Below, one piece after another: positions 33,187 to 48,825 of a stretch of DNA of 64,000 nucleotides. The DNA comes from an uncultured candidate division WWE3 bacterium (GTDB taxonomy: Bacteria > Patescibacteriota > WWE3 > UBA101185 > UBA10185). A model generated the notes under the pieces. It was given only the letters and a program-made list of their open reading frames with translations. It made no database searches and was not told where the DNA came from. Each line of letters starts with the position of its first letter. The first letter of the stretch is position 1. The stretch spans positions 33,596-97,595 of the forward strand of contig CAVXUZ010000005.1 of NCBI GenBank assembly GCA_963765125.1, in the 5' to 3' direction. Made by a program: the position numbers and the translations under genes.

Positions 33187-33212
33187 TAGAAATATGCTAA
33201 ACTTACTAAGGT

Positions 33213-34097: not shown

Positions 34098-35218
34098 TCT
34101 TTTTTAGGTCGTTTTTTAGATAAAGTAAACCAAAACGTCGATCCCTTACCAACCCCATCAGAAAAGACTCCGATTTTTCCACCCATCGCATCAACAAAAA
34201 GTTTTACGATATAAAGACCAAGTCCCGTGCCCTCTGCTTCTGCAACAGTTTGGTAGGACGAATCTAGCCTTCCGAATTTATGAAATAGTCTTTCTAATTC
34301 ACTTTGTTTAATTCCCCTACCCGTATCAATAATCGAAATTTTTATAAAATCACCAGCGTTTCTGATATCAATTTTTATTTCTCCTTGATCGGTAAATTTC
34401 ATAGAATTTCCAACGAGATTTACCAAAATTTCTCTCAATTTCGATGTGTCGACATACGCATAGTGCTTATTATGCTCGTTTGAAATTGTAAGCTTTAAAC
34501 CTTTTTCGTCTGCTTTAACTTTAAAATCAGAAACAAGTTCTGCAACAGTGTCTACGAGTTCGACGCGGTTAATTACTACGTGAAGTGCGTTTTGTTCAAT
34601 TCGCGAAACACTCAAAATATCGTTGATAAGTTCGATCATTCTCTCGGTACTTAAAATCGCTTTTTTAATATACTCTTTTTGTTTATCGGTAAGAGTTCCG
34701 TGTTTTTCAGAACTAATCATCCACAAATAACTTTTAATAATTGTCATTGGAGTGCGCAGCTCGTGTGAGGCAACAGACAAAAACTCATCTTTGGTTCGTT
34801 CAAGTTCTTTGATTTTTGTAATATCAGATATTGTGATTAGGCTTTCCTCTTGCCCCTCACCAAGTTCAATAACTGCAGTCTTTACCTCTACTCGATATTT
34901 ATTGCCTTTTGCTAAAAGGATGATGTCTGCAATATGACTATGTTTTGAACTTTTCTTAAAGCAAAAGCTTTCTGGGCTTACCGGAGAATTATCAGTTGAA
35001 TAAAGCTCTAATAAGTCGTGAACTCCAGCTCCGATGGCGTTTTCTTTTTTTACACCGAATTGCTCCTCAGCAGCTTTATTGAAAAGAGTAATTTTATAAT
35101 GTTTATTTACAGCAAGAATTGATTTTGAGATAGCATCAATAATTTGCTCAATACTTGCCTTGTGAGAATTATTTTTGGTCAAACTTTCAATATTGGGCAT
35201 TAAAACTATTTTACACAA
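34094..35218 (-). CDS. Sensor histidine kinase with a PAS domain (cytoplasmic; HisKA plus HATPase_c)
   Basis: PAS block (ITLFNKAAEEQFGVKKENAIGAGVHDLLELY). H-box SHELRTPMTIIKSY. N/G boxes (NLVGNSMKFT; DTGRGI; GTGLGLYIVK). The track start is TTG at 35218; an alternative ATG start lies at 35200. Confidence 0.8.
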   Translation of the reverse strand: MCKIVLMPNIESLTKNNSHKASIEQIIDAISKSILAVNKHYKITLFNKAAEEQFGVKKENAIGAGVHDLLELYSTDNSPVSPESFCFKKSSKHSHIADIILLAKGNKYRVEVKTAVIELGEGQEESLITISDITKIKELERTKDEFLSVASHELRTPMTIIKSYLWMISSEKHGTLTDKQKEYIKKAILSTERMIELINDILSVSRIEQNALHVVINRVELVDTVAELVSDFKVKADEKGLKLTISNEHNKHYAYVDTSKLREILVNLVGNSMKFTDQGEIKIDIRNAGDFIKISIIDTGRGIKQSELERLFHKFGRLDSSYQTVAEAEGTGLGLYIVKLFVDAMGGKIGVFSDGVGKGSTFWFTLSKKRPKKD

Positions 35219-35248
35219 AAAAATATTTTGGTATATACTAGAAATACT

Positions 35249-35635
35249 ATGGAAGAAAACATTACAAAGAAAAAAACCGTACTTTTAGTTGAGGACGAAG
35301 TAGATTTAGTAGATTTATACACAGAAATATTAAACGAAGCGGGTTACGATGTACTCCCCTCTTATGACGGTGAAGATGGAATTTATAAAGTAAAAAATGA
35401 AAAATGGGATTTGTTACTTTTAGATATTATGCTCCCAGAAAAAGATGGTATGGCTGTACTTGAAGAAATGCAAAAAACTGAGGCCTCAAAAAAGGGACCG
35501 GTGGTGCTACTCACAAACCTAAACAGTGAAGATCTCATAGAACGTGCATACAAACTAGGTGCCGATGACTATTTAATCAAATCAGAAATTTCGTTAGACG
35601 ATATTGTTAAAAAAGTAAAACAGTATCTTAGTTAA
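35249..35635 (+). CDS. Single-domain response regulator (receiver only), divergent from the histidine kinase
   Basis: VLLVEDEVDLVDLYTEIL...DLLLLDIMLPEKDGMAVLEEMQ...VVLLTNL...K. Start taken at ATG 35249 (MEENITKKK); the track uses TTG 35228. The stop overlaps the start of the next gene. Confidence 0.8.
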   Translation: MEENITKKKTVLLVEDEVDLVDLYTEILNEAGYDVLPSYDGEDGIYKVKNEKWDLLLLDIMLPEKDGMAVLEEMQKTEASKKGPVVLLTNLNSEDLIERAYKLGADDYLIKSEISLDDIVKKVKQYLS

Positions 35636-36171
35636 TGTTTAAGCTTAGTAAAAAAAGAATCACAATTATTTTATTTGTTATTGTCATTTTGGCAATTACC
35701 ACAGCCGCCGTCATTTTTATACTTCCAAAGATAACAAATAAAAAAAGTGTAGTTAGAGATCAGCCAATTGCATACGAGGACACTAAAGACACAATTGTTC
35801 CCGAAGAAGCAGCAGCGTTGATAGAGTTAAATGCAATTTTAGATCCTGAAACCGACTATTGGGCAGACTGGAGCTGGCAAGCAAAATATGCAGAGTTTAT
35901 CATAAGCAATTTAAGTGTTGCTGATAATTACATTGTTGGCTACATTAGCAGACCGGTGGCGTTATCGAATAATAATGCGCAGATAGTAAAACACCCGTTA
36001 TGTGATCCTACAAAGTCGATTGCGGTTTCCAAAGATGATCCACTTAGAGGTATAAATGCAAAAGGCTTTGAATTTATGCAACGTGCAAGCTCTGGAGATA
36101 TTTTCTACACCAATTGTTTAGACGAGGAGTGTTTTAACATTGGCAATAACTGTGTCTTAGTAGAATTTTAA
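35635..36171 (+). CDS. Membrane-anchored small secreted protein, member 1 of a C-x3-C-x6-C C-terminal motif family
   Basis: N-terminal signal-anchor KRITIILFVIVILAITTAAVIFIL. C-terminus ...ASSGDIFYTNCLDEECFNIGNNCVLVEF. Clear paralog of the 40272 gene and related to 36174. Confidence 0.6.
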   Translation: MFKLSKKRITIILFVIVILAITTAAVIFILPKITNKKSVVRDQPIAYEDTKDTIVPEEAAALIELNAILDPETDYWADWSWQAKYAEFIISNLSVADNYIVGYISRPVALSNNNAQIVKHPLCDPTKSIAVSKDDPLRGINAKGFEFMQRASSGDIFYTNCLDEECFNIGNNCVLVEF

Positions 36172-36173
36172 AA

Positions 36174-36749
36174 ATGAAAAAATTAATAAACAAAAAAATA
36201 TTACGAATCTTATTAATAATACTTGGCGTTATATTGCTGGGCTTTATAGTTAGCCCATTTATTTTTAGTAAACGAGTAGAAATTAATGAGTTTGACCAGA
36301 TTTATATAAAGAGTAATAGATTTGTTTTACCTAAATTAATTTCAATAGAAAAAAGACAAGATATCGGGGTTAAAGAGGCAGGTTTAATCAAAACCGAAAT
36401 TATCTCTCCTGAGGGTAAAACTGGTATTAACGAACTTTCTTATTGGGATACGTGGACTTGGAACACAAAATTGGTAAAACTAGAAATCTTAAGAGTTTCT
36501 GTTGAAAGCGGTAATGTTTACGCAAGTCTATTACTTCCTGCCGAGTCGAGTGGGTTGTCACCAGAAAAAGAGTACGAAATCAAATGCAGTGTTGATGAAA
36601 CATCTGTTATTTATTTTCGTGATCCAGCTAATCGCAACGATGAGTATAAACCAGCGATTGAACTGTTAGCGTCCGGTGACCTGTTCTACGCATATTGTTT
36701 GGATTCTCAATGTAGTTCTCTTGGTCGACGCTGTATTATTGAGCGCTAA
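36174..36749 (+). CDS. Membrane-anchored small secreted protein, member 2 of the C-x3-C-x6-C family
   Basis: Signal-anchor ILRILLIILGVILLGFIV. C-terminus ...LASGDLFYAYCLDSQCSSLGRRCIIER. Confidence 0.55.
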   Translation: MKKLINKKILRILLIILGVILLGFIVSPFIFSKRVEINEFDQIYIKSNRFVLPKLISIEKRQDIGVKEAGLIKTEIISPEGKTGINELSYWDTWTWNTKLVKLEILRVSVESGNVYASLLLPAESSGLSPEKEYEIKCSVDETSVIYFRDPANRNDEYKPAIELLASGDLFYAYCLDSQCSSLGRRCIIER

Positions 36750-36772
36750 AAACTACCTTTAGTTTAAGGTAC

Positions 36773-36811
36773 CCCATAGTTGATATTTGCCACATAATTT
36801 GAGACAATCCA
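36773..36811 (+). promoter_or_regulatory. Conserved upstream element CCCATAGTTG-N16-TGAGACAAT, copy 1 of 4 (upstream of the 36855 lipoprotein gene)
   Basis: Same bipartite motif as at 40866, 41465 and 42179. Confidence 0.4.
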
Positions 36812-36854
36812 ATTAAACTTAAATAACCCGAAAAAACAATAAAAAGGAGGCAAA

Positions 36855-37748
36855 ATGAAGACTAAGTTTTTTTCAGGGTCTTGGCTATTTAGCCGCACTT
36901 TAAAAACTCTAATTCTCGTACTACTTATTACGTCAGTTGTTATGACAATACTTATCGGCTGTACGCCTGCGACGTCAGTTCTAGTCGTAGAACCGATTGT
37001 AACTACAAACACACCGCTAATAGAGATTGTTGGCGAGTCGACAGCTACAGCAGTACCTACGGCTACCCTATTTCCGACCATGGTTGTTACGCCCGAGCCA
37101 ACTACAATGCCAGAAAATTTTGGGTGGCCCATCTTACAAGAAATGCCTTACGGTGAGGAACGTGCAGAGATTGAGGCTTCGCTTGCAAAGGACCCTAACC
37201 TTGTAAAAGGAACTCCCTCTGAGAATGAGCGGTTCATGATTGCTGATGTATGGGGTTTATGGCCACTTCTTTATAATCCAAACACAGGGATGTTACCTGA
37301 CTATTCAAATAAAAGTCTTCCAGATGACCTTTACAGTTATCTGAATGTTTGGTATAGAGGCAGTCATAAATTTTATGTCGACACCGGAACAAGTGGTAAC
37401 CCGGCGATGTTTGCAGAACAACTAGACGGTAATCTACCGATAATGTTTAAATACCCATTTGTGGTGTATGAATATGCAAATAGCACGTCGAGTAGTCTTT
37501 GCCAGTTTTTCGAAGCCGGAACGTTAGCCGGCTATGGATTGGGTGAAGAGACTGTCGATGGGCAGCCAAGTGACATACCAACCGGAATCGCATATCTGGT
37601 TGAAAGGTTTGGTGATTCTAAAATCATCAATGATGCAGACAGGCTGTACTGTAGTAACTTTGATCCTGTCTCAAACGACTTCTTAACCATAGCAAAGGCA
37701 AAAGGTTACGATACTATAGTTGCACAGGTTTTGGAAAAGCTCAAATAA
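36855..37748 (+). CDS. Putative lipoprotein or secreted protein (297 aa), unknown function
   Basis: Strong SD (AAAAAGGAGGCAAAATG). Signal peptide with lipobox-like LIGC. Thr/Pro-rich linker. An upstream CCCATAGTTG...TGAGACAAT motif is shared with the 40949, 41548 and 42261 genes. Confidence 0.5.
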   Translation: MKTKFFSGSWLFSRTLKTLILVLLITSVVMTILIGCTPATSVLVVEPIVTTNTPLIEIVGESTATAVPTATLFPTMVVTPEPTTMPENFGWPILQEMPYGEERAEIEASLAKDPNLVKGTPSENERFMIADVWGLWPLLYNPNTGMLPDYSNKSLPDDLYSYLNVWYRGSHKFYVDTGTSGNPAMFAEQLDGNLPIMFKYPFVVYEYANSTSSSLCQFFEAGTLAGYGLGEETVDGQPSDIPTGIAYLVERFGDSKIINDADRLYCSNFDPVSNDFLTIAKAKGYDTIVAQVLEKLK

Positions 37749-37847
37749 AATAATCGAGAATTAGAAAATTATTAAGTAACACCCTCAGTCACTTTGAGGG
37801 TGTTTTTTATTGTTATTCTATAAATAATCGTTTAGTATTAATAAGTA

Positions 37848-40097
37848 GTGAACAATACTTCACCTTGCCTAAAACTTAATACCATATTATTAATCCGTTT
37901 GTTAATTTTTATTACTAGTGCTTTTTTACTTTCATTTGCTACAAAAAACGTTATTTACGCAGGCTGCGCCGCAAACGAATGTGACGGACCAGGTGAATAC
38001 GAGTGCGAGAATGGAACGATGTGCTGTACAGGCGGCGGATGTCCATCAAACAGATGTCCAGCCAACTGCACTGCTAGAATTTATTCGGGTTATTGGACGT
38101 GTAATTGTACACTATCAAGAGAGGTATGTTCCATTCCTACACCGTATGATTGTGAGCCTTGCATTACTGAAAGGGTGTGTGGACCAGAGACAACATGTGG
38201 TTATGTGAGTAGTTCAACATGTGCACAATGGGCTACCCGTTCTTACCCATGTCGACAAAAGACATGTTGGTATAATTATTGTTGGTACACTTGGGGCACA
38301 TGCAAGTCAACATACTGTGCAAGATACTATCAGGTTTGGCGCTGCTCAACCACAGACGTTTGCAAAAATGTTAAAAATTGTAGTACTTGCTACAAAAAAA
38401 ATTGCTTCATAGAGTACTACGAAGATCAAACAACCTACACCGCTAGAGGTACATGTAAATACTGTACACAGGGTGGCGGCGGGGGTGGTGGCTCTTGCAC
38501 AACTAACCCAACTGCGCCTACTTTAAATACCCCATTTGAAGGTTCGTCAATGCAAGGTAGTCTAGCAATTGATTTTAGCTGGAATGCCCCGACAAGTTGG
38601 GGGGCTAATTGTACGCCCGCAAGTTACTTTCTAATGGTTGATGACGAGAGTAGTTTTACAGACCCCCGAGTGCACAGCGTGTCGTACCCAACTTCGACTA
38701 CATCACAAACCGTTACAATGCCGGGAGAAGATACTTATTTTTGGAGAGTTCAGGCGTGTAATCAACGCGGCTGTACCTCATCTGTCACGAGGTCATTTAA
38801 CTTTAGTTGCGGTATAGCTCCTGGTAGAGCAACTAACCCATCGCCGTCAGATGGTGCGACCGACGTTACTATTGCACCAACACTATCATGGGATGGCCCA
38901 TCAGATTGGGGTTCAGCATGTGGTATGAACAACAACAATAGATTCACAGTTTACGGTCAGGTTAAAAATGGAGTATGTGAGGGTCCAGGTTCTGGCTATT
39001 CTGCAATACCTTCTTGTACAAATTTACCTGAGGGTACGACATCTTGTATAGACCCATTTTTCAACACCAGCAGTACCCCTTACTGTTGGTATGTTTCCAC
39101 AAACAACGGTACAGAGACGACGCTTTCTGCCTCTACTGCTGATGAAGTATGGGAGTTTAGAACAGAAGAGCCCATCACTTATACAAATTGGGTTACTGCA
39201 TTGTTTGGTGATTTTTATGCAGGAGGTTTAACCGAGCAATACCCAAGCACAACACGCTATGTGACGCCTTGGAATCCTCCATATGCAGCATATGAAAAAG
39301 AACCTACCTCCTCTGATGAGCCAAACGTAGCACTTATCACAAGCAATGATACGGATATAACAAATGATAATGGTGCTAATGAATACAATCCCGGATCTCA
39401 ATCAAATCTATCAGTTGAATTTGCTAACTTTGAAGAAACATGGCCTGCAAGCTACCGCGGTACTCCCCCAGCTTCAGCTATTAATTTACCTTTAAATGGA
39501 GGCTCTTGTTCAGATATCTTCACAGGTAGTACAAAGCTTGATCCTTACGAAGTATATGAAGCTGATGCAAGCTGTATGTCAGAAGCAATCAATGCAGTTG
39601 ATGGTAACCCCAATGGCTATTCACTAGCCTCAGACGGTTATACAGTTATCTTTGTTACAGGAAGCACAAACCTTGAAATAGACAGTCCATTTACCACATC
39701 AAATGATGATTACCGTGTGGTATTTGTTACTGGACCTAATGTTTCAGTACAGATAGATAGAAACTTAAAGTTAGCAACCGATCCTGATTTTAACAGTGAG
39801 CCTTTAATTGAAGCTGCCTTTATCGTTACCAAAGACTTAACCATTGAGGGTGCTGCTAACGATTCATCTATAGACCTAACTACTGATCCAGATGGTTCAA
39901 TTATGGTTGAGGGTCCACTTATCGCAAGAACAGTAAACTTTAACAGAAACAGAGGTCTAACTAATCAATATCCATCAGAGATTGTTAAATACAATCCTAA
40001 CTACATATATAACCTAACAGAACAAGAAAGAACCTCTCTAAAAAACAATGGTTCAGGCCTGTTTGTTATTGATATTACTTGGATGAATGTAGACTAG
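37848..40097 (+). CDS. Giant secreted protein 1 (749 aa): signal peptide, extremely Cys-rich module, Gly7 linker, two FN3-like domains, and a conserved C-terminal domain shared with the 43554 gene
   Basis: About 40 Cys in residues 38-218 (CAANECDGPGEYECENGTMCC...CKYCTQGGGGGGGSC). FN3-like repeats with the W...Y.W.VQACN..GC...TRSF pattern. C-terminal 261 codons nearly identical at the DNA level to 44931-45714. Confidence 0.7.
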   Translation: MNNTSPCLKLNTILLIRLLIFITSAFLLSFATKNVIYAGCAANECDGPGEYECENGTMCCTGGGCPSNRCPANCTARIYSGYWTCNCTLSREVCSIPTPYDCEPCITERVCGPETTCGYVSSSTCAQWATRSYPCRQKTCWYNYCWYTWGTCKSTYCARYYQVWRCSTTDVCKNVKNCSTCYKKNCFIEYYEDQTTYTARGTCKYCTQGGGGGGGSCTTNPTAPTLNTPFEGSSMQGSLAIDFSWNAPTSWGANCTPASYFLMVDDESSFTDPRVHSVSYPTSTTSQTVTMPGEDTYFWRVQACNQRGCTSSVTRSFNFSCGIAPGRATNPSPSDGATDVTIAPTLSWDGPSDWGSACGMNNNNRFTVYGQVKNGVCEGPGSGYSAIPSCTNLPEGTTSCIDPFFNTSSTPYCWYVSTNNGTETTLSASTADEVWEFRTEEPITYTNWVTALFGDFYAGGLTEQYPSTTRYVTPWNPPYAAYEKEPTSSDEPNVALITSNDTDITNDNGANEYNPGSQSNLSVEFANFEETWPASYRGTPPASAINLPLNGGSCSDIFTGSTKLDPYEVYEADASCMSEAINAVDGNPNGYSLASDGYTVIFVTGSTNLEIDSPFTTSNDDYRVVFVTGPNVSVQIDRNLKLATDPDFNSEPLIEAAFIVTKDLTIEGAANDSSIDLTTDPDGSIMVEGPLIARTVNFNRNRGLTNQYPSEIVKYNPNYIYNLTEQERTSLKNNGSGLFVIDITWMNVD
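39267..40050 (+). repeat. 784-bp intragenomic direct repeat, copy 1 (partner at 44931-45714); in-frame coding sequence
   Basis: Base-by-base comparison of the printed lines. The copies are identical except two adjacent third-position synonymous differences at 39956-39957 (ggtcta versus gggtta). Confidence 0.85.
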
Positions 40098-40271
40098 CTA
40101 CTTTAAAATAGGGTTATGTTATTAAACCAATATTGAATTTTGGCCTGTTGATAAGGTAAGAAAAAGTCTTATGATATTGTTAACAAAACTAGACAGTAAA
40201 GACCCAGTAGATTGCGATCGCAAACTGTGTGCCAGTGTCTACTTAAAAAATAGAAATTTTGTAATTTAATA

Positions 40272-40802
40272 ATGCCCGTTAAAGATTACATACAAAAGAA
40301 AAAATTCTCCGTCACCATACTTCTGATAGTTATTGTTGTAACACTAATTACTGTAGGTTTCGTAATGCCGCTCATCACCAACCCAGAAAAAAAAGTTGCT
40401 AAAGATACAAAGACAACGCAAGTTGGAAAACTAGACGCAAACATGTTGCCATCAGAATTTGTAAAAGCGTTTTCAGAAGGGTCAATGTATTTTAAAAATT
40501 GGAACTGGCATGACAAAATGGTGCAAGTCATAATTACAGACTCAAGCGTTAGTGAAGATTCGATGGCAGGCTACATCAGAAACCTAACTGATAAATTTCC
40601 TGACAGAGAAAACAGAAGATTTTTTAACTCGTGCACGCCTGAACAAACTTTTGCTGTGTCTAACGTCAACCCAACTAAAAGCGTTTTAGCAAAAGGTTTT
40701 GGTTTAGTGAGCCGTGCCTCTGCGGGAGACATCTTATATACGTACTGTCTTGACGAAAACTGTGTAAACCTCGGCAAGAGCTGCGTGCTGATTGAATTTT
40801 AA
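40272..40802 (+). CDS. Membrane-anchored small secreted protein, member 3 of the C-x3-C-x6-C family
   Basis: Signal-anchor FSVTILLIVIVVTLITVGFVM. C-terminus ...ASAGDILYTYCLDENCVNLGKSCVLIEF. About 45% identical to the 35635 product over the C-terminal half. Confidence 0.6.
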   Translation: MPVKDYIQKKKFSVTILLIVIVVTLITVGFVMPLITNPEKKVAKDTKTTQVGKLDANMLPSEFVKAFSEGSMYFKNWNWHDKMVQVIITDSSVSEDSMAGYIRNLTDKFPDRENRRFFNSCTPEQTFAVSNVNPTKSVLAKGFGLVSRASAGDILYTYCLDENCVNLGKSCVLIEF

Positions 40803-40865
40803 ATAATCCCCTACTTTATGTTTTTTGGTTTGGTGATTTTTTTTGCGTCGGTGGATAACCGATAG

Positions 40866-40902
40866 CCTATAGTTGATTTTTATGCTGAAAATGTGAGTTA
40901 AT
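40866..40902 (+). promoter_or_regulatory. Conserved upstream element CCTATAGTTG-N17-TGAGTTAAT (putative promoter/operator), copy 2 of 4
   Basis: The same bipartite motif with the same spacing occurs at 36773, 41465 and 42179, each about 45-60 nt upstream of a secreted-protein gene. Confidence 0.45.
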
Positions 40903-40948
40903 CCTTATCAATTGTATGTGCTCAGTCAATACCGCAAAGGAGGTACAA

Positions 40949-41386
40949 ATGGCTGTTAAGAATGGCTCGGCTGTATTTGTTGTTGTGAGCGTTTTATTAC
41001 TGGTTATGGTACTTGTAGTGACGATTGTTTATATAACATTAAAACTTACTGCACCGATTGAGTTAAGGAGCTTTACGGACGTAACTGACAAAGTTATCTC
41101 TGGAGAGATTGTTTGCGCCCCATTGGGAGACGCGCAGTTAGAAAGAACAAGACTTGGTCTAAAATCAGGTCGCACCACTATAGTAAATCAACTCTACCCG
41201 AGTCATAACGTGTCAGTGGCATGTTCCTTTCTTGTGGTGCTCGAGTCAGCTAATCCAGAAGTAGTTACGATCGTTTATTACAAAAAAGGTGGAGTTAGGG
41301 TAGTGGAGAGGGTTTTAATAGACCCGCGGAATGCAGCGCAACTCTGGAAAAATGCTAAACCGGTAAATGGTAACTTAAATTTATAA
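40949..41386 (+). CDS. Small secreted/membrane-anchored protein, tandem paralog A (146 aa)
   Basis: Start at the ATG preceded by AAAGGAGGTACAAATG, which is the identical RBS context of the 42261 gene. Signal-anchor AVFVVVSVLLLVMVLVVTIVYI. Conserved blocks VISGEIVCAPLGD and VVTIVYYKKGGVRVVERVLIDPRNAAQLWKNA are shared with the 41548 and 42261 products. Confidence 0.55.
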   Translation: MAVKNGSAVFVVVSVLLLVMVLVVTIVYITLKLTAPIELRSFTDVTDKVISGEIVCAPLGDAQLERTRLGLKSGRTTIVNQLYPSHNVSVACSFLVVLESANPEVVTIVYYKKGGVRVVERVLIDPRNAAQLWKNAKPVNGNLNL

Positions 41387-41401
41387 ATTGTAGATTTGTT
41401 A

Positions 41402-41440
41402 GTCCCCATCTCTTTCACCAAGATGTGGGGATTTAATTTG
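41402..41440 (+). terminator. Stem-loop terminator after paralog A
   Basis: TCCCCATCTCTTTCACCAAGATGTGGGGA followed by TTTAATTTG. Confidence 0.4.
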
Positions 41441-41464
41441 TTTGATAGCCCAACACAAATAGTA

Positions 41465-41500
41465 CCTATAGTTGCACTTAGCAAAGATTTATGAGTAAAT
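41465..41500 (+). promoter_or_regulatory. Conserved upstream element CCTATAGTTG-N17-TGAGTAAAT, copy 3 of 4
   Basis: Same motif and spacing as at 40866 and 42179. Confidence 0.45.
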
Positions 41501-41547
41501 AGCATCAAGATAAATCCGTATATTCCACATCAAGGAAGGAGGGAAGA

Positions 41548-42099
41548 GTGGCTACAAATAACAACTTTAGTAAGGTTGTAGTTTTAATGCTTGCTGTGCT
41601 ACTGGTTGCTGTTTCAGGTTGTAATGAGACTCAGGCAAGTGTTTCACCGACCGTTGAACCAACTCTGGCACCAACGATCGTGATTAAAAATATTGCTACA
41701 ACGACGCTGCCACCAACTACCAAGCCCACGTTAGTACCAACACCTTCGGAGGAACTTGGGTCAACATCAACACCAATAGCTGTAGTAGAAATTAGATCAC
41801 TAGATGAATTGATTACTACTGTTAATAATGAAGTTATTGCTGGTGCACCCATCTGTGGAACACCCAAACTTGGGGATTCAGGAGTAACGTTATCTAACGG
41901 TTTTAAGTACTTAAGCTTAAAAACAAAAGTGTTTCCGGATTTAGAAAAAATACTTTGCCAGTACCTTATTATTATGCCAAATGAGCATACTCCAACTGTT
42001 ACAGCAGTATATTTAAGAGATGGTGTGTACCTACTTGAAAATGTAAAGATCGAAAAGAGCCTATTAAATGATTTTTGGAAAAAAGGTTTAACTGAGTAG
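41548..42099 (+). CDS. Lipoprotein, tandem paralog B (183 aa); GTG start
   Basis: Signal peptide with lipobox LLVAVSGC. Thr/Pro-rich linker. C-terminal domain VIAGAPICGTPKLGDSGVTLSNGFKYLSLKTKVFPDLEKILCQYLIIMPNEHTPTVTAVYLRDGVYLLENVKIEKSLLNDFWKKGL is homologous to the 42261 product. Confidence 0.55.
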   Translation: MATNNNFSKVVVLMLAVLLVAVSGCNETQASVSPTVEPTLAPTIVIKNIATTTLPPTTKPTLVPTPSEELGSTSTPIAVVEIRSLDELITTVNNEVIAGAPICGTPKLGDSGVTLSNGFKYLSLKTKVFPDLEKILCQYLIIMPNEHTPTVTAVYLRDGVYLLENVKIEKSLLNDFWKKGLTE

Positions 42100-42120
42100 T
42101 AAACACCTAAGTCGCAATCA

Positions 42121-42162
42121 AACCCCACCTTACTTTTTAAGAAGATGGGGTATTTTTTTAAA
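42121..42162 (+). terminator. Stem-loop terminator after paralog B
   Basis: AACCCCACCTTACTTTTTAAGAAGATGGGGT followed by ATTTTTTT. Confidence 0.45.
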
Positions 42163-42178
42163 AAGCATTTTAACATGC

Positions 42179-42214
42179 CCTATAGTTGCAAATTTACCTA
42201 AAATATGAGTAAAT
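42179..42214 (+). promoter_or_regulatory. Conserved upstream element CCTATAGTTG-N17-TGAGTAAAT, copy 4 of 4
   Basis: Reads as TTGCAA-N17-GTAAAT (sigma70-like) preceded by the conserved CCTATAG. Confidence 0.45.
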
Positions 42215-42260
42215 AACAACAGAACAAATCAACGCAAACAATACCATAAAGGAGGTACAA

Positions 42261-42764
42261 ATGAATGCGAAAAATAACCACACTAAGGTTATGGTTGTTG
42301 TTATTGTTATAGTAGCAATACTGGTCATGGGTTATACCACAGCAGACGCAGGGTATCTTCTGACAGGAAAAAATACTCTGGGATCCAAGGTTGCGCGGAG
42401 CTCAGTGTCGTCTTCGATGGCTGATTCCACCTTGATGTTCTTGCCAATATCCCTAGACGAGAAAATTGATTCTATCGCAGAAGATGTAATTGCTGGAAAG
42501 ACAGTATGCGGTGATCCAGGAGCTGACTTAACAGCCATGAAGTTTGACTCTGGATACAGATACGTAAGATGGCATGTAACAAAGTTTCCGGAGTACAAAC
42601 AGGTGATGTGTAAACTCATTGTTGTGCTACCGTCAGAAAAGTCGTCCACTGTTTTTGTTGTATATTTAAACAACGGCGATTACACGGTTAGTGAGGCCCT
42701 TGTTGATTCCAAAATACTTAAATCTTTTTGGAAAAGAAGTCTATTGATAACCACAGAATCTTGA
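42261..42764 (+). CDS. Secreted/membrane-anchored protein, tandem paralog C (167 aa)
   Basis: RBS AAAGGAGGTACAAATG. Signal-anchor VMVVVIVIVAILVMGY. C-terminal domain VIAGKTVCGDPGADLTAMKFDSGYRYVRWHVTKFPEYKQVMCKLIVVLPSEKSSTVFVVYLNNGDYTVSEALVDSKILKSFWKRSL. Confidence 0.55.
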   Translation: MNAKNNHTKVMVVVIVIVAILVMGYTTADAGYLLTGKNTLGSKVARSSVSSSMADSTLMFLPISLDEKIDSIAEDVIAGKTVCGDPGADLTAMKFDSGYRYVRWHVTKFPEYKQVMCKLIVVLPSEKSSTVFVVYLNNGDYTVSEALVDSKILKSFWKRSLLITTES

Positions 42765-42770
42765 TAGGAG

Positions 42771-42810
42771 ATCCCCACTTCAATTTTATTGGACTGGGGA
42801 TTTACTTTAT
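42771..42810 (+). terminator. Stem-loop terminator after paralog C
   Basis: ATCCCCA-cttcaattttattggac-TGGGGAT has a perfect 7-bp stem and is followed by TTACTTTAT. Confidence 0.45.
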
Positions 42811-42811
42811 G

Positions 42812-42840
42812 TTGACATAGGTGAACAATAATTACATAAT
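42812..42840 (+). promoter_or_regulatory. Sigma70-like promoter TTGACA-N17-CATAAT ending 6 nt before the GTG/ATG start of the 42847 gene (possible leaderless transcript)
   Basis: Consensus -35 TTGACA at 42812-42817. 17-nt spacer. -10 CATAAT at 42835-42840. Confidence 0.5.
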
Positions 42841-42846
42841 TTTACT

Positions 42847-43575
42847 GTGATGAATGTATTGCCCAAAAGAAACGCCATCCTGGTAAGTGTAATTATAATC
42901 TTGTTTACTCTAACGCTATTATCCATCGTGCCGTACTTAACGTTAAGAAGCTACATCAAAAGAAATGTTGATAAAAATATAGAATATGTGTTTTACGTTG
43001 AGGTAGAAGATTCATTAAAAAATTCAAAATATCCAAATCTTGCGACTTGGTACCTAAGTAAGGTACAGAACTTTTATAAAGCAGTACTTAATAGGGAGTT
43101 TCTTGTAGAGCTACCTGATTATAATACTGTTTTTCAAGCCTACGACTACACCGAATACCCAGCTGTATTTTTGGTCAAGAATTATGACTTACCAACAGAC
43201 GAGATAAGTATTGAATTTGTAATGCCCACTGATTTTGCTGAATTTACAGCAGTAGCAAAGTTGAACTGCGGTAAGGCAACAACGCGTGCTGGTGTATACA
43301 GTGCTAGCCAGCAAACCGAGAAATGGGCAATACTCAAGGAGTTACGACAGAGTAATCTTAGCGAAGAAGACAGGTTTACTTTGATTGGTAAATTATATCG
43401 CGCAATTCCGTTTGAAGAACAGCTATCAGTGGAAAATGGTGTTGGCCAGACAATTCAGGAGATGCTGGAGCGATCAGAAATAACACAGGACAAAAGGCAG
43501 CTAAAATTGGTAACAACTTGTAGAGAGGACCAGTGTGACAATACCTCTGAGCAATGTATTCTGTACATTCAATAA
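42847..43575 (+). CDS. Membrane-anchored secreted protein (242 aa), divergent member 4 of the C-x3-C-x6-C family; overlaps the start of giant protein 2 by 22 nt
   Basis: Signal-anchor AILVSVIIILFTLTLLSIV. C-terminus ...KLVTTCREDQCDNTSEQCILYIQ. Confidence 0.55.
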   Translation: MMNVLPKRNAILVSVIIILFTLTLLSIVPYLTLRSYIKRNVDKNIEYVFYVEVEDSLKNSKYPNLATWYLSKVQNFYKAVLNREFLVELPDYNTVFQAYDYTEYPAVFLVKNYDLPTDEISIEFVMPTDFAEFTAVAKLNCGKATTRAGVYSASQQTEKWAILKELRQSNLSEEDRFTLIGKLYRAIPFEEQLSVENGVGQTIQEMLERSEITQDKRQLKLVTTCREDQCDNTSEQCILYIQ

Positions 43576-45761
43576 ATATGAAAATTAATAAAAACTATAC
43601 TAATAAGAGTGCCTTACCTTTTGTAGCGTCATTGTTTCTTGCGTGTGTTATTTTGTTTAGTCCTGTTGCCGATGCAAAAATTTACAATCCTAAACCAAAA
43701 CCTGGAAAATATATTAACTGGGACAGAGTTTACAAAGAGAGAATAAATAAAATTCATGAGAAGGATGCCAAGATGGCGGCGACTTACGCAAGACTGGCAG
43801 CTAAAAACCCAGATAAGCTGAGAGATTTAATCGATACATGGGCAGCAAACAAAGGTATTACTCATGATCAGTTTAATGTCTGGGAGGTAAAGAATCTTTA
43901 TTCAATAATCTCGGGAGGAAGCGTTGTCCTTGGTAGCTTTGGGCCGTCTGCGGACTATGAGTTTATTGTCAGCGATGACGGCACAAAGATGTATTGGAGT
44001 GACGCCACCGGCGGTTATACAAGTATAACTGTACCTGCGCGTTACACTACAGTATCAGGTCAGTATGCGTCATATAATTCATCAACTGGTGTTGTTTGTT
44101 ACAGTTGGATTGGTTGTACTATACCAACTACCGCATCTAATGGAAATACAAACAATGGATGTAGTGGGCTACCTACGGCGCCACCACTTGTTAGTCCCCT
44201 CAACGGTGCAACAATCTTTGAGAATAAAACGATTAGTTTTCAGTGGGGTGCACCCACTGGGTGGGGTACAAACTGTCCAACTCATGTATATAGGCTACAA
44301 GTTGACGACGAAAACACGTTTAGTGAGCCTTCTGCTTTAGATTCTGGTTTTGATGGTAGTACAACCTCAACGACAGCAGATTTTACTTTAAATAAAGAGT
44401 ACTTTTGGAAAGTTCAAGCTTGTAACGCAAAAGGATGCACCCCCTCTGTAACAAGATCATTCATACTTGGTTGCGGTATCGCTCCAGGAGTTGCATCAAA
44501 CCCAACACCTTCAGACGGTGCAATAGATGTAGTTATTGCACCAACACTGTCTTGGGATGGTCCATCCGATTGGGGCTCAGCATGCGGTATGGATAACAAT
44601 AATACATTTACGGTATACGGTCAGGTTAAAAATGGACTGTGTGAAACTCCAGGCCCAGGTTATTCTGCAATTCCAACTTGTACAAACCTCTCTGAAGCAT
44701 CAACATCTTGTGTAGATCCATTCTTTAACACTCGAAGCACACCATATTGCTGGTATGTAGGAACAAACAATGGAACAGAAAGTAATACGTCAGCAGCAAC
44801 AGCTGACCAAGTATGGGAGTTTAGAACTGAAGACCCCCTTCTCTTTGAAAACTGGGTAACCACACTTTTTGGTGATTTTTATGCAGATACTCTTGCAGAA
44901 CAATATCCTAAATCAGCAAACTACGCATCCCCTTGGAATCCTCCATATGCAGCATATGAAAAAGAACCTACCTCCTCTGATGAGCCAAACGTAGCACTTA
45001 TCACAAGCAATGATACGGATATAACAAATGATAATGGTGCTAATGAATACAATCCCGGATCTCAATCAAATCTATCAGTTGAATTTGCTAACTTTGAAGA
45101 AACATGGCCTGCAAGCTACCGCGGTACTCCCCCAGCTTCAGCTATTAATTTACCTTTAAATGGAGGCTCTTGTTCAGATATCTTCACAGGTAGTACAAAG
45201 CTTGATCCTTACGAAGTATATGAAGCTGATGCAAGCTGTATGTCAGAAGCAATCAATGCAGTTGATGGTAACCCCAATGGCTATTCACTAGCCTCAGACG
45301 GTTATACAGTTATCTTTGTTACAGGAAGCACAAACCTTGAAATAGACAGTCCATTTACCACATCAAATGATGATTACCGTGTGGTATTTGTTACTGGACC
45401 TAATGTTTCAGTACAGATAGATAGAAACTTAAAGTTAGCAACCGATCCTGATTTTAACAGTGAGCCTTTAATTGAAGCTGCCTTTATCGTTACCAAAGAC
45501 TTAACCATTGAGGGTGCTGCTAACGATTCATCTATAGACCTAACTACTGATCCAGATGGTTCAATTATGGTTGAGGGTCCACTTATCGCAAGAACAGTAA
45601 ACTTTAACAGAAACAGAGGGTTAACTAATCAATATCCATCAGAGATTGTTAAATACAATCCTAACTACATATATAACCTAACAGAACAAGAAAGAACCTC
45701 TCTAAAAAACAATGACTCAGGTCTGTTTGTTGTTGATGTTACTTGGATTAGCGACGAATGA
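43554..45761 (+). CDS. Giant secreted protein 2 (735 aa): signal peptide, non-Cys-rich N-terminal domain, FN3-like domains, and the same conserved C-terminal domain as the 37848 gene
   Basis: Signal peptide ALPFVASLFLACVILFSPVADA. The FN3-like region is 70-85% identical to protein 1. The C-terminal 261 codons (44931-45714) are nearly identical in DNA to 39267-40050. Confidence 0.7.
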   Translation: MYSVHSINMKINKNYTNKSALPFVASLFLACVILFSPVADAKIYNPKPKPGKYINWDRVYKERINKIHEKDAKMAATYARLAAKNPDKLRDLIDTWAANKGITHDQFNVWEVKNLYSIISGGSVVLGSFGPSADYEFIVSDDGTKMYWSDATGGYTSITVPARYTTVSGQYASYNSSTGVVCYSWIGCTIPTTASNGNTNNGCSGLPTAPPLVSPLNGATIFENKTISFQWGAPTGWGTNCPTHVYRLQVDDENTFSEPSALDSGFDGSTTSTTADFTLNKEYFWKVQACNAKGCTPSVTRSFILGCGIAPGVASNPTPSDGAIDVVIAPTLSWDGPSDWGSACGMDNNNTFTVYGQVKNGLCETPGPGYSAIPTCTNLSEASTSCVDPFFNTRSTPYCWYVGTNNGTESNTSAATADQVWEFRTEDPLLFENWVTTLFGDFYADTLAEQYPKSANYASPWNPPYAAYEKEPTSSDEPNVALITSNDTDITNDNGANEYNPGSQSNLSVEFANFEETWPASYRGTPPASAINLPLNGGSCSDIFTGSTKLDPYEVYEADASCMSEAINAVDGNPNGYSLASDGYTVIFVTGSTNLEIDSPFTTSNDDYRVVFVTGPNVSVQIDRNLKLATDPDFNSEPLIEAAFIVTKDLTIEGAANDSSIDLTTDPDGSIMVEGPLIARTVNFNRNRGLTNQYPSEIVKYNPNYIYNLTEQERTSLKNNDSGLFVVDVTWISDE
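44931..45714 (+). repeat. 784-bp direct repeat, copy 2 (partner at 39267-40050)
   Basis: See copy 1. Identity breaks exactly at both ends (g/c before, g/a after). Confidence 0.85.
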
Positions 45762-45892
45762 TTAGATCTGTAAAAGGATTGTTTGAAAACAGTAGATTTG
45801 GGTTGTTGTTTGTGATTGTATTTTTTATGGTGTCGATGTTTGTTGCCTACTACATTGCACCATTAATTATGCAAAGTGTGTTTGCAAGATAG
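45758..45892 (+). CDS. Possible 44-aa single-TM micro-protein whose ATG overlaps the stop of giant protein 2 (ATGA)
   Basis: MIRSVKGLFENSRFGLLFVIVFFMVSMFVAYYIAPLIMQSVFAR, read manually. Below the ORF-track cutoff. No homolog known. Confidence 0.25.
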   Translation: MIRSVKGLFENSRFGLLFVIVFFMVSMFVAYYIAPLIMQSVFAR

Positions 45893-45974: not shown

Positions 45975-46841
45975 ATGATAAAAAAATACAATACTGCTCT
46001 AAAAGAATCAGAAAAAGGACAAGCGTTGCTTTTTGTTGTAGTCGCTATGACAATTGCTTTGTCTATTGGAATTAATTCAAGTGTCAGAACACTTACCTCC
46101 CTGTCAAGAACTTCAAGATCAGACACGGCCTCAAGAGCTTTAGCTGCAGCAGAGGGCGGCATTGAGAGATATCTTGCACTCTCTACAACCGAACTAGAGA
46201 GTACGATTACTGGCAATTGCGCAGCAGGAACTTATGATCAAACAGCAGAAGCTTGCCTGATAGAGTTTGATGCTTCTTCTGATGCAATTGTTTCTCAAGC
46301 TCACGTTACTGTGCAAAGATACGAACCAGATTTCTATCCCTTTGATTTAGAGAGTGGCCAAGTTAAAGAAGTGAATCTTTATGATTACAACAGCGGTAAT
46401 CATTACGGTGCTTCTACTGTCGAAGTTTGTTGGAATTCAAAACCACAATCAGAGTTAATGTATATTGCATACAAAGACTCCGGTATTAGTGCTCGTGGTG
46501 GTCTTACCGGTTCAAACGCACCAGATGCTCCTTACAGCAGCAAAGGTTTTGAAAGCGCAGGACCGGGCAGAGACGGATACGCTAACTGCAAAACTATAGA
46601 TATAACTAATGATGTTTACGGGCTGAGAATTAGATCTGTTGGTGATGCTTCTAGCGTTGCAGTGTTCCCTACCGGCAATGAGAGACTCCCTCTTCAAGGT
46701 TATACAATTAAATCTATTGGAAGAATACAACAGGACCAAGGCGTTACCGCTACGAGAACAATTAGCATTATAAGAAGTCTAGCTTATCTCCCTGTAAGCT
46801 TTGACTATGCGTTATATTCAGAGGGCTCGATTACTAAATAA
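45975..46841 (+). CDS. PilX-like minor pilus protein (PilX_N-type N-terminus, no prepilin cleavage site)
   Basis: MIKKYNTALKESEKGQALLFVVVAMTIALSIGINSSV...ASRALAAAEGGIE. Paralog of the 50417 gene (shared C-terminal FDYALYS / FDYALFQ). Confidence 0.6.
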   Translation: MIKKYNTALKESEKGQALLFVVVAMTIALSIGINSSVRTLTSLSRTSRSDTASRALAAAEGGIERYLALSTTELESTITGNCAAGTYDQTAEACLIEFDASSDAIVSQAHVTVQRYEPDFYPFDLESGQVKEVNLYDYNSGNHYGASTVEVCWNSKPQSELMYIAYKDSGISARGGLTGSNAPDAPYSSKGFESAGPGRDGYANCKTIDITNDVYGLRIRSVGDASSVAVFPTGNERLPLQGYTIKSIGRIQQDQGVTATRTISIIRSLAYLPVSFDYALYSEGSITK

Positions 46842-46848: not shown

Positions 46849-47298
46849 ATGCCCAAAAATCAATATCTAAAAACACAAAGTGCCTTTACGCTAATCGAAC
46901 TGTTAATTGTTATTTCTGTTGTTGGCATATTATCCGGAGTTTTGGTAAATGTTATAGATTCGAAAGGTCAAAAAAATAAAGCACTAGACAGTGTTCATCG
47001 AAAAGACATAAACGATTTAGCAGTTTCAATCGAGTCTTACAGGACAGCAGAAGGTTCATACCCCGATGAGGGAACAGAAAACAACCCTCTTGACCCCAGC
47101 GCGTCTACGAGAAATACTGCCGCGGTTTATATAACAGAGTGGCCAGTGGGTGTTATTTATATAAAAAACGATCCTGATTTTGCAATTTATATTCAAAAAG
47201 AAGCTGATACAAATTTTATAAAGTATAATTCGGTGTGGAGAGAATTCAGAGAGTGCGCTGATACAACAAATCCAACCAGTATTACCGACTGTGATTAA
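46849..47298 (+). CDS. Type IV (minor) pilin
   Basis: Start moved to the internal ATG. Leader MPKNQYLKTQSA|FTLIELLIVISVVGILSGV with E+5. Confidence 0.7.
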   Translation: MPKNQYLKTQSAFTLIELLIVISVVGILSGVLVNVIDSKGQKNKALDSVHRKDINDLAVSIESYRTAEGSYPDEGTENNPLDPSASTRNTAAVYITEWPVGVIYIKNDPDFAIYIQKEADTNFIKYNSVWREFRECADTTNPTSITDCD

Positions 47299-47734: not shown

Positions 47735-47790
47735 AGAATATTTCACTCTCCTACCTTGACACCGCAACGCTAAAATCTCATACTTAATCT

Positions 47791-48799: not shown

Positions 48800-48825
48800 A
48801 AAAGTATAAGTGTTAGAATTTTAGT

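Follow-up and report, generated by a model that had tools for sequence, protein, structure and literature searches.

In Thermus thermophilus, ComZ (PDB 6QVI), a pilin resembling GspK, bears a solenoid like that of ice-binding proteins and has been proposed to sit at the pilus tip (PMC6561018), and in cyanobacteria the solenoid of PilX has been proposed as a 'tip plug' that replaces PilY1 (bioRxiv 10.64898/2026.02.12.705559). In both cases pilin fold and solenoid form one polypeptide, the solenoid being an insertion within the fold. Tapirins of Caldicellulosiruptor are non-pilin proteins whose genes adjoin a pilus locus; their C-terminal beta-helix domain serves in attachment. PilY1 (PilC) of proteobacterial and Myxococcus type IVa pili is a large non-pilin encoded beside PilX and the minor pilins, with a conserved C-terminal domain and a variable N-terminal part. 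Treuner-Lange 2020 reportedly describes PilY1 paralogs with different N-termini within one genome. Among CPR bacteria, the saccharibacterial PilX1 and PilX2 are without PilD signals, and host binding depends on PilX2 (PMC12206443). The Pam pili of Candidatus Mycosynbacter amalyticus, a system known only from CPR and encoded by an operon of exported unannotated proteins, are thought to make host contact (bioRxiv 10.64898/2026.03.03.709456).

The locus described here lies in a window of 64,000 nt (the whole stretch of DNA that was analysed) and encodes two large proteins, D and J. As with ComZ and cyanobacterial PilX, which are proposed to sit at or plug the tip in organisms without PilY1, their genes belong to the minor-pilin region and a tip position is proposed, but their solenoid is the C-terminal domain (CTD) of a separate protein that has a Sec-type signal, long variable N-terminal parts and no pilin domain, and the PilX-like protein is encoded by a separate, adjacent gene. 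They resemble PilY1 in all the features given above, but their CTD is a beta-solenoid rather than a beta-propeller, they have no Pfam match, and their gene precedes the PilX-like one. The earlier note had suggested an undescribed system; this holds for the protein families but not for the principle, since PilY1, ComZ and cyanobacterial PilX already provide examples of a bulky non-pilin or solenoid module at the tip of the pilus.

Organization of the region and its pilus gene neighbours

Ten + strand ORFs, A to J (35635-45761), lie between a response regulator and a PilX-like gene, and the type IV pilus genes reported earlier on both flanks are present:

28420..34097, + strand: pilB, pilT, pilC, a major-pilin-like gene and pilD (Pfam)
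34094..35218, - strand: PAS histidine kinase (HK; Pfam PAS, HisKA, HATPase_c), divergent from the response regulator
35228..35635 (probable start 35249), + strand: receiver-only response regulator (RR), 135 aa (Pfam Response_reg only)
35635..36171, + strand: A, A-family protein anchored in the membrane at its N-terminus; four Cys are invariant (C-x37-C-x4-C-x6-C)
36174..36749, + strand: B, A-family paralog
36855..37748, + strand: C, which carries a lipobox (LIGC), a T/P-rich linker and a globular domain containing a Cys pair; relatives have C-like genes at the corresponding position
37778..37804, + strand: terminator-like hairpin between C and D (11-bp stem and T run; pattern match only)
37848..40097, + strand: D, 749-aa D-family protein
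39267..39955, + strand: identical CTD tract, copy 1 (in D), 689 nt, 100% identical to 44931-45619
40272..40802, + strand: E, A-family paralog, 36% identical to A, opening cassette 2
40949..41386, + strand: F, F/G/H family, signal anchor; start set by a repeated RBS-plus-ATG block common to H
41548..42099, + strand: G, F/G/H family, lipobox VSGC and T/P-rich linker
42261..42764, + strand: H, F/G/H family, signal anchor or signal peptide
42847..43575, + strand: I, divergent A-family-like protein in which the C-terminal C-x4-C-x6-C block alone is clearly common to the family
43554..45761 (probable start 43578), + strand: J, 735-aa D-family protein
44931..45619, + strand: identical CTD tract, copy 2 (in J), 689 nt
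45758..45892, + strand: 44-aa ORF with one hydrophobic segment, its ATG overlapping the J stop
45975..46841, + strand: K, PilX-like protein; candidate minor pilin of the tip and candidate docking partner
46849..53755, + strand: seven pilin-like genes (N_methyl motif in 6/7), a second PilX-like gene (50417-51226), pilM, pilN and pilO

The region is best explained as the adhesin-encoding section of a single large type IV pilus (T4P) gene cluster, made up of two cassettes, A-B-C-D and E-F-G-H-I-J. Its end had been set at 45892, which is the stop of the overlapping 44-aa ORF, while J itself ends at 45761. This small ORF is possibly a relic of an A-like gene; its tblastn matches were weak and solely to A-family N-termini.

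The RR stop codon, TAA, and the ATG of gene A have one base in common (TAATG, 35633-35637), and this 1-nt overlap shows co-transcription or translational coupling of the two genes. Both the overlap and the divergent PAS kinase were confirmed. The signal regulation suggested from them does not follow: the HK/RR pair is a conserved neighbour (HK at the same position in the related loci L002/L007 and L005, 74-75% identity; RR in L002 and L005, 80-81% identity), but the RR lacks an output domain and the overlap does not show that the RR regulates the region. Action of the RR via protein contacts, as for CheY or PilH, is more likely than action as a transcription factor. The number of terminator-like sites found in the region by pattern matching was not above chance.

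Each of A to J has a single N-terminal hydrophobic segment and none elsewhere (10/10), judged by a Kyte-Doolittle 19-residue mean >= 2.3, a heuristic in place of SignalP/LipoP. By this measure, the claim that every product carries a signal peptide, anchor or lipoprotein signal is upheld. The same pattern occurs in just 13 of the 55 other ORFs of the window, and most of these belong to the adjoining pilus cluster (pilins, PilX2 or PilN). None of the ten proteins matched a family in Pfam, NCBIfam or PHROG, so that the description 'no recognisable family' is correct for curated libraries; it fails overall, as D and J have hundreds of homologues. Homology to phage structural proteins was also considered, and no phage homologues of the region's proteins were found (PHROG searches included).

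It is very improbable that the region is a divergent Pam-type operon for a donor-strand-exchange pilus (the CPR pilus of Mycosynbacter). All products have export signals, as in the Pam operon, and G gave a weak NCBIfam match to CPR_pilus_PamR (E 2.8e-5, 23 bits), but this spans only the signal and linker at the PamR N-terminus and lies far under the 300-bit cut-off, and G was dismissed as a PamR. Apart from this spurious hit, no Pam-family model or curated family matched the region's proteins at a meaningful score. Pam pili consist of Ig-like pilins, and Pam chaperones and PamR have C-terminal membrane helices while A to J have none; the CTD, moreover, is a solenoid and not a truncated Ig fold, so that both folds and assembly logic differ.

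Conservation in related CPR assemblies

The common gene order in relatives is pilT-pilC-pilA-pilD-HK-RR, A-like, C-like, D-like, PilX-like, minor pilins, pilMNO. The L002/L007 locus, for example, reads pilT-pilC-pilA-pilD-HK(-)-RR, two A-like genes, C-like, D-like (1162 aa), PilX1-like, minor pilins, PilX2-like and pilMNO, and L005 has the first half of this order likewise; in both, the A-like/C-like/D-like module lies after HK/RR and before PilX and the minor pilins. The succession of pilus locus, two-component system, region and pilus locus is conserved in related CPR assemblies. Tandem cassettes, with A-like and D-like genes beside PilX-like genes, occur in L004, L010, L011 and L013. The label 'accessory island' did not survive: gene order is conserved in relatives, the G+C content is unremarkable, and the surrounding genes are housekeeping. 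Comparison of these sequences indicates that the region is a conserved, duplicated part of the T4P gene cluster of an ultrasmall CPR bacterium.

The proteins might instead be fast-evolving surface or secreted products unrelated to the pilus in function, placed here by an accident of history that the operon structure has preserved. F, G, H and the J head have no homologues in 13 loci, and C-like proteins diverge very fast among relatives, as this would lead one to expect. It is nevertheless hardly probable, because the D-like/PilX-like order and tight coupling are kept across 34% to 55% CTD identity and because cassettes have duplicated along with their PilX-like gene (L003, L004, L010-L013).

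Among the small proteins, A, B and E are paralogs (E 1e-32 to 1e-12), while I joins them only via its C-terminal motif (E 0.08). A-like homologues were found in 8 loci, and four Cys are invariant in 12 A-family sequences, which come from the window, five distinct loci (L001, L002, L004, L005, L013) and the near-duplicate pair L010/L011. A, B, E and I had earlier been grouped as C-x3-C-x6-C proteins; the group is sound, but the spacing is C-x4-C-x6-C, preceded by a fourth invariant Cys. The structure model of the family was poor (pLDDT 60). The best reading is that A, B, E and I are conserved membrane-anchored accessory proteins, which would have an N-in/C-out anchor and two likely disulfides. 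C shows weak similarity to the C-like proteins of relatives, mostly in the anchor, linker and C-terminal 'LYC.NFD' motif, and these would be lipoproteins or otherwise anchored. A-like and C-like proteins both recur in relatives' cassettes, and most likely they would hold or load the adhesin at the membrane, although this is a weak suggestion.

F, G and H form another set of paralogs (E 1e-25 to 1e-7) and are the sole genes of the region with homologues in 0/13 loci; they are additions so far seen in this window alone. Their paralogy had been recognized earlier, but not all are lipoprotein-like: besides C, G alone of the ten ORFs has a lipobox, and F and H look like signal anchors.

The D-family proteins and their solenoid domain

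In D, a signal peptide is followed by a Cys-rich head with the motif CCTGGGCPS (aa 40-217), then by two Ig/FN3-like domains (aa 217-441) and finally by the CTD (aa 439-749, nt 39162-40094). J has an AxA signal peptide, a unique, partly helical head without any homologue (13 loci included), two Ig/FN3-like domains and the CTD (nt 44826-45758). The two are 80% identical over 541 aa, in agreement with the earlier description of different heads on a near-identical C-terminal domain. They had also been called FN3-containing; no FN3 match was found in Pfam (best, Ig_Rha78A_N, E 0.12), and the designation Ig/FN3-like comes from homology to multi-repeat proteins.

Homologues of D and J have so far been found only in CPR-labelled genome assemblies. 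The family is defined by a 310-aa beta-solenoid of ice-binding-protein type, which always forms the very C-terminal end, as seen in about 40 cluster representatives whose N-terminal parts differ; passenger domains include CBM60 (5/32 members), Big_7 (5/32) and Ig_Rha78A_N (3/32). Signal-peptidase-I-like sites followed by Cys-rich heads occur across the family, and, because of these N-terminal Sec-type features (hydropathy and motif rules), D and J are probably exported via Sec. In structure comparison the nearest match to the CTD was ComZ, a pilus-tip protein. The fold is also that of ice-binding proteins (DUF3494 / IBP-1 fold), but D and J have no Pfam sequence match, DUF3494 included, and in the context of CPR pilus genes ice binding is not expected.

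A conserved CTD with varied heads, CBM60 among them, is the usual pattern for a docking tail joined to a variable binder, and such roles may be proposed here. Against this, the beta-helix itself binds the ligand in the top fold matches (DNA in ComZ, cellulose in tapirins, ice in ice-binding proteins), and Saccharibacteria are naturally competent (PMC10633639). The solenoid of D and J could then bind DNA or a glycan for DNA uptake or substrate capture, in place of recognizing a specific host, the N-terminal parts being spacers or auxiliary binders. This is unlikely, as the CTD is the most conserved part while the heads vary and carry modules, ComZ binds DNA between two domains and not on the solenoid face alone, and no comEC or other competence gene was present among the family-searched genes. 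Tapirins, furthermore, have neither a Cys-rich head nor coupling to a PilX-like gene, and D and J did not match the NCBIfam tapirin model; their tail is probably for docking.

The PilX-like protein K as proposed docking partner

The N-terminus of K (...KG/QALLF..., no Glu at +5) is in register with the prepilin motif (hhalign P 8e-4, probability only 24%), and searches of Pfam, NCBIfam and PDB gave no match and no pilin model. Because of this motif and its gene position, K is considered a putative pilin. K homologues follow D-like genes in L002/L007, L003, L006 and L008-L013, and in eight retrieved loci, which come from fewer than eight independent sources, the distance from the D-like stop codon to the start of the PilX1-like gene is -19 to +4 nt (L002, L003, L006, L008, L009, L010, L012, L013). 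In the window, D is followed by E and not by a PilX-like gene. A K-like gene heads the minor-pilin operon in every locus reaching far enough.

We give a probability of about 0.5 to the reading that D and J are Sec-exported adhesins whose CTD docks to the PilX-like protein, with the pilus tip as the probable site. Docking to K is proposed because of gene adjacency and analogy: the CTD would bind K, which is encoded nearby and, without Glu5, is GspK-like, and the D-family protein would then ride at the tip with the minor-pilin priming complex, its variable head touching the host cell surface. If so, D and J are good candidates for swappable host-attachment heads. The suggestion of pilus-associated or surface adhesins in a CPR organism is supported by the T4P genes that adjoin D/J family members in related CPR assemblies, the PilX coupling, the ComZ-like fold, the CBM heads and the lack of phage homologues in the searches.

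Somewhat unlikely, but the foremost competitor, is that D and J are held on the cell body, the CTD binding the outer domain of a membrane-anchored partner (K, an A-family or a C-like protein). On this reading, pilus adjacency would reflect co-expression for attachment in two steps, the pilus tethering the host and a short-range adhesin then locking on. Every small cassette protein is anchored N-terminally with its domain facing outward, K has no detectable prepilin-peptidase-type signal or pilin family match, L001 carries a D-like, A-like and C-like trio remote from any pilus gene, and extra close-range adhesins have been proposed for Saccharibacteria (PMC12206443; PMC10633639). The position of K-like genes at the head of the minor-pilin operon, the register of the K N-terminus with the prepilin motif, and the precedent of a solenoid with a GspK-like pilin as a tip solution argue for the tip instead.

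D and J present two heads beside one shared PilX-like gene, K. Because the 689-nt CTD tract is identical between them, gene conversion is indicated as the probable cause, and it would keep both CTDs identical and let both heads fit the same partner. The tract has a sharp upstream boundary, with about 35-40% divergence beyond it, and on the 3' side there are just 2 mismatches up to 40050; the flanking sequence has 63 synonymous and 43 non-synonymous codon differences.

The pilus cluster and the genes inside it

The window carries a single long type IV pilus cluster, and the ten ORFs considered here, A to J, lie within it. On the 5′ side are pilB, pilT, pilC, a major-pilin-like gene and pilD, together with a PAS histidine kinase on the minus strand that is divergent from a 135-aa, receiver-only response regulator (Pfam). 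On the 3′ side are K, seven pilin-like genes, a second PilX-like gene, pilM, pilN and pilO. The prepilin N-terminal methylation motif (PF07963, G|FTLxE) was detected by Pfam in the major-pilin-like gene and in six of the seven downstream pilin-like genes, and in none of A to J. The features referred to below, including two genes that lie outside the main pilus cluster, are:

11332–13857 (+), 841-aa membrane-anchored VirD4/TrwB-like coupling ATPase (DUF87, TrwB_AAD_bind)
25059–25556 (−), lone pilin-like gene between the H+-pyrophosphatase gene and gyrB
35635–45761 (+), ORFs A to J, in two cassettes (A to D and E to J)
37778–37804 (+), strong terminator-like hairpin (11-bp stem and T run) between C and D
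37848–40097 (+), D, first of two large paralogs
43554–45761 (+), J, the second large paralog (probable start 43578)
45758–45892 (+), 44-aa ORF with one hydrophobic segment, its ATG overlapping the J stop
45975–46841 (+), K, PilX-like protein
50417–51226, PilX2, second PilX-like gene
57365–57492 (−), 128-nt tRNA called by Rfam (45.7 bits), adjoining tRNA-Ile(GAT); missed by ARAGORN at default settings, which with the intron option predicted a 37-nt intron and a tRNA of 93 nt that has a long extra arm and 'AAT' as its anticodon

The stop codon of the response regulator and the start of A have one base in common (TAATG), confirming an overlap reported in the earlier note. Both parts of a two-component system are present, a kinase with HisKA and HATPase_c domains and a receiver domain. 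No output domain was found in the regulator by Pfam and, from what is established for single-domain receivers, it is at least as likely to act on the pilus motor in the manner of CheY/PilH as to regulate the island. A promoter and terminator scan returned site counts at chance level, so no operon boundaries are claimed from it; given the hairpin between C and D, D may be transcribed separately from A-B-C.

Each of the ten proteins has a single strongly hydrophobic segment within its first 45 residues and none elsewhere, as judged by a hydropathy heuristic; the same pattern occurs in 13 of the 55 other ORFs of the window, most of which belong to the adjoining pilus cluster (pilins, PilX2 or PilN). 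The export signals claimed earlier are thus borne out at the level of hydropathy, but a lipobox ([LVI][ASTVI][GAS]C at the signal-peptide end) was matched only in C (LIGC) and G (VSGC). F, G and H, previously described as three tandem lipoprotein-like paralogs, are true paralogs, although F and H lack the lipobox and C, outside the trio, has one. The probable start of F is at 40949, as indicated by a block of ribosome-binding site plus ATG that is repeated in H.

The D/J family and its C-terminal solenoid

D and J share 80% identity over 541 aa. Both begin with a signal-peptide-like N-terminus and are built of modules, the tail, a C-terminal domain of about 310 residues (CTD), being a conserved solenoid. 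A word-indexed protein search with J recovered only D and J themselves, and taken alone would suggest orphans; an exhaustive HMMER scan (query J residues 193–735) overturned this, with 1030 proteins at E ≤0.001. Calling these CPR surface proteins orphans on the strength of a fast search would be wrong, and the earlier statement that the island genes belong to no recognisable family stands insofar as A to J matched nothing in Pfam, NCBIfam or PHROGs, but not for D and J, with their many homologues.

The HMMER matches fell into two classes. One comprises very large proteins in which the Ig/FN3-like repeat recurs many times; the other, about 40 cluster representatives, has the final 310 residues of J. 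In all of the latter the CTD ends 0–22 residues from the C-terminus of its own protein, and the parts N-terminal to it vary in length and content. In many members, as in D, the signal peptide leads directly into a Cys-rich region, often with CC(T/Q/I)G(G/N)GCP(S/T); the head of J has no homologue in the D-family set. The variable heads sometimes include carbohydrate-binding modules, and among 32 members the domains detected were CBM60 (5), Big_7 (5), Ig_Rha78A_N (3) and a Hint module (2). The Hint/intein-like module lies within the head in both cases, one being P0032 (residues 131–240), and is odd for an exported adhesin. D and J had been described as FN3-containing, but neither has a Pfam match to FN3 (PF00041), the best being Ig_Rha78A_N at E 0.12. 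Homologues match Ig_Rha78A_N, Big_7 and one FN3-like family and, since the middle region of D/J matches the repeats of the giant proteins, 'Ig/FN3-like' is a fair term.

No Pfam family covers the CTD, and a sequence search of the PDB found no match to it. Its structure model gave the fold matches listed below and, with ComZ and ice-binding proteins at the top, the modelled domain is assigned to the triangular beta-solenoids of the ice-binding-protein class. The last residues, 304–311 (J aa 728–735; ...GLFV.DV.WISEE), are well conserved, with W307 nearly invariant, and are modelled at pLDDT <50; they could form a tail that is ordered only on a partner.

Table. Fold matches of the CTD model
Match; score
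ComZ of Thermus thermophilus (207 residues aligned); 11.3
Four ice-binding proteins; 9.3–11.1
Tapirin C-terminal domains; 5.4–5.9
Generic beta-helix adhesins and hydrolases; lower

ComZ has been reported to carry a solenoid that is similar to an ice-binding protein, is set into a GspK-like pilin fold and could be accommodated only at the pilus tip (PMC6561018). A solenoid-in-pilin design has been reported for all cyanobacterial PilX and has been proposed as a tip plug replacing PilY1 (2026 preprint, bioRxiv 10.64898/2026.02.12.705559). D and J share this type of triangular solenoid, but in ComZ and PilX it interrupts a pilin fold whose N-terminal alpha-1 helix belongs to the same polypeptide, whereas in D/J it is C-terminal; unlike ComZ, D and J begin with Sec-type signals (AxA-like sites) and match neither N_methyl nor any pilin. 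PilY1/PilC, like D/J, are non-pilin proteins encoded with PilX and minor pilins, and have a conserved C-terminus and a variable N-terminus. Their C-terminal domain is a beta-propeller, whereas D/J had no Pfam match to that domain at E up to 10 and the CTD is modelled as a solenoid, so the likeness supports 'works like' rather than membership. D/J likewise had no Pfam match to the ice-binding DUF3494 at E up to 10, and that likeness is at the fold level only. Tapirins are non-pilin attachment proteins whose genes adjoin a pilus locus; no island protein matched the tapirin model NCBIfam NF051896 above its cut-off. The fold matches to tapirins and ComZ would also suit a solenoid that is itself the ligand or DNA binder, as in those proteins, which we regard as unlikely; the carbohydrate-binding modules of this family were found in heads.

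Two other origins were considered. A phage source was rejected, as the island proteins matched nothing in PHROGs and no viral structure resembling the CTD was found by Foldseek against BFVD (best E 0.09). That the island encodes a Pam-type pilus is scarcely credible: the sole match, that of G, scored 23 bits against a cut-off of 300 and covered the signal and linker only. Pam chaperones and PamR have a C-terminal membrane helix, and Pam components have C-terminal anchors and Ig folds (bioRxiv 10.64898/2026.03.03.709456), whereas the island proteins have neither these features nor any C-terminal hydrophobic segment.

Related loci and the coupling to PilX-like genes

Pattern scans with a CTD alignment (10 closer sequences) retrieved loci L001–L013, six from species-representative genomes, all of them CPR assemblies labelled Saccharibacteria or WWE3, and seven from metagenomes; window proteins were mapped onto them by tblastn. 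L002 (and its duplicate L007) matches the window in gene order, with PilT 82% and PilC 76% identical: pilT, pilC, pilA, pilD, histidine kinase (−), response regulator, two A-like genes, a 299-aa C-like and a 1162-aa D-like gene, a PilX1-like gene, minor pilins, a PilX2-like gene and pilMNO. The first half of this order is kept in L005. G+C content in the island region is ordinary and the neighbouring genes are housekeeping (gyrA, gyrB, H+-pyrophosphatase, recG, class A penicillin-binding protein); with the compositional signal absent and such surroundings, horizontal transfer was rejected. The region is not the accessory island it was taken for. Cassette 1 (A, B, C, D) is the conserved module, and cassette 2 (E to J) repeats it in diverged form with some additions. 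Among the additions are F, G and H, which have no counterpart in any retrieved locus and no relation to the C-like or A-family profiles. C, F, G, H and I gave no phmmer hits against ORFs of the first 13 loci, and the C-like proteins resemble C chiefly in the anchor, a T/P-rich linker and a short C-terminal motif.

The tail gene is tightly coupled to the PilX-like gene that opens the minor-pilin operon. In L002, L003, L006, L008, L009, L010, L012 and L013 the end of the D-like ORF falls anywhere from 19 nt inside the PilX1-like ORF to 4 nt ahead of it; with L002/L007 identical and L008/L009 and L010/L011 about 96% identical, the independent observations are closer to seven than ten. L003, L004 and L010–L013 have PilX1-like genes on both sides of, or after, the D-like gene, and in L004, L010, L011 and L013 A-like genes stand alongside. 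Such an arrangement looks like cassettes in tandem, every one of them having a PilX1-like gene of its own; in L003 the two copies are 78.5% identical at the DNA level. In the window, unlike in these relatives, two D-like genes are accompanied by a single adjacent PilX1-like gene. The exception is L001, where a D-like, A-like and C-like trio lies beside a recombinase gene and SUF genes on a 13-kb contig devoid of pilus genes. The claim of pilus-associated adhesins gains from the D-like/PilX-like coupling, the ComZ-like fold and the CBM60 heads, and L001 counts against it. Mere co-location with pilus genes, against which the recurrent coupling counts, seems quite improbable.

The 44-aa ORF downstream of J occupies an unusual gap of 213 nt between J and K, where relatives have −19 to +4 nt. 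The only similarities found for it, all weak, are with A-family genes in the part encoding their N-terminal anchors, and it may be what is left of an A-like gene.

K and its relatives share an invariant G-Q-x-L, which hhalign places in register with G|FTLIE in the window pilins (P 8e-4, probability 24%). K lacks Glu at +5 and had no match in Pfam, NCBIfam or the PDB, and its reading as a pilin is only partly supported by these alignments. Saccharibacterial PilX1 and PilX2 have been described in similar terms, as being without a PilD signal and having extra C-terminal domains, with PilX2 required for host binding (PMC12206443).

Proteins A, B, E and, as a more distant relative, I are small and have C-x4-C-x6-C (not the C-x3-C-x6-C first reported) at the extreme C-terminus and one upstream Cys, all four Cys being invariant in 12 sequences. 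By their topology they should present a small disulfide-bonded domain outside the membrane; their structure model is poor (pLDDT 60), and its fold search carried no reliable information. Word-indexed searches with alignments of 4 and 12 sequences returned essentially same-contig proteins. The family recurs in the cassette of relatives and, with low confidence, may be an accessory that holds or loads the adhesin. The A-like and C-like genes in the cassette, present even in L001, would also fit D/J as cell-body adhesins anchored through such proteins or through K, a reading that we hold to be rather unlikely; the coupling of the tail gene is to the opening of a minor-pilin operon.

An identical tail tract and a possible role at the pilus tip

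A tract of 689 nt spanning CTD residues 36–265 (39267–39955 = 44931–45619) is 100% identical in the D and J genes, and the 95 nt that follow have two mismatches only. Directly upstream the genes differ at about every third base, and the 530 nt before the tract contain 63 synonymous and 43 non-synonymous codon differences, indicating that the duplication is old and the identity recent. The window thus has two heads with one common PilX-like gene and an identical tail.

We propose that the CTD docks to the PilX-like protein, that the two would be built into the pilus tip with the minor-pilin priming complex, that the head would bind the host surface, and that gene conversion may keep both tails fit for a single PilX-like partner. 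Taken together this has a probability of roughly 0.5; every functional step is inferred, in an uncultivated lineage. The proposed job is that of PilY1, with its propeller, and of ComZ and cyanobacterial PilX, with their fused solenoid. A separate solenoid protein would be a third solution linked to these two for placing a bulky binding module at the tip.

A more specific and tentative version, with the odds somewhat against it, is a two-piece CPR pilus tip. The PilX-like pilin without E5 would be the socket, and exchangeable, Sec-exported non-pilin adhesins would plug into it by their beta-solenoid tails, so that one cell could arm its pili with different heads while gene conversion keeps the plug compatible and the heads diversify. 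If this is true, episymbionts would have a host-range system of modular design.

The means by which ultrasmall CPR/Patescibacteria locate and keep hold of host cells are still largely an open matter: type IV pili are needed, and the recognition determinants have not been identified (PMC12206443, PMC10633639). The present system offers a candidate, open to testing, for the way in which CPR pili recognise a host. Members of the Pfam-less CTD family, with at least 40 clusters, are candidate pilus-borne adhesins, and the PilX-like gene is a concrete candidate partner. A cassette of A-like, C-like, D-like and PilX-like genes with homogenised tails is a genomic signature that could predict host-binding genes across CPR genomes. 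The earlier description of an undescribed system holds for its components, as the CTD, A and K families are absent from Pfam and NCBIfam, but the principle of a bulky module at the tip is already known from PilY1, ComZ and cyanobacterial PilX. In our literature search no paper was found that describes, for Patescibacteria, a separate protein with a solenoid tail and coupling to PilX.

Tail homogenisation may recur in relatives. The L004 and L005 contigs, from another assembly, both break off within the CTD, their final 55 nt being the same, and L012 has the same 127 nt at both ends (1–127 and 4185–4311), inside D-like genes. Breaks at identical stretches are what assemblers produce at identical repeats, which hints, and no more, that D-like paralogs in these genomes have identical tracts in common.
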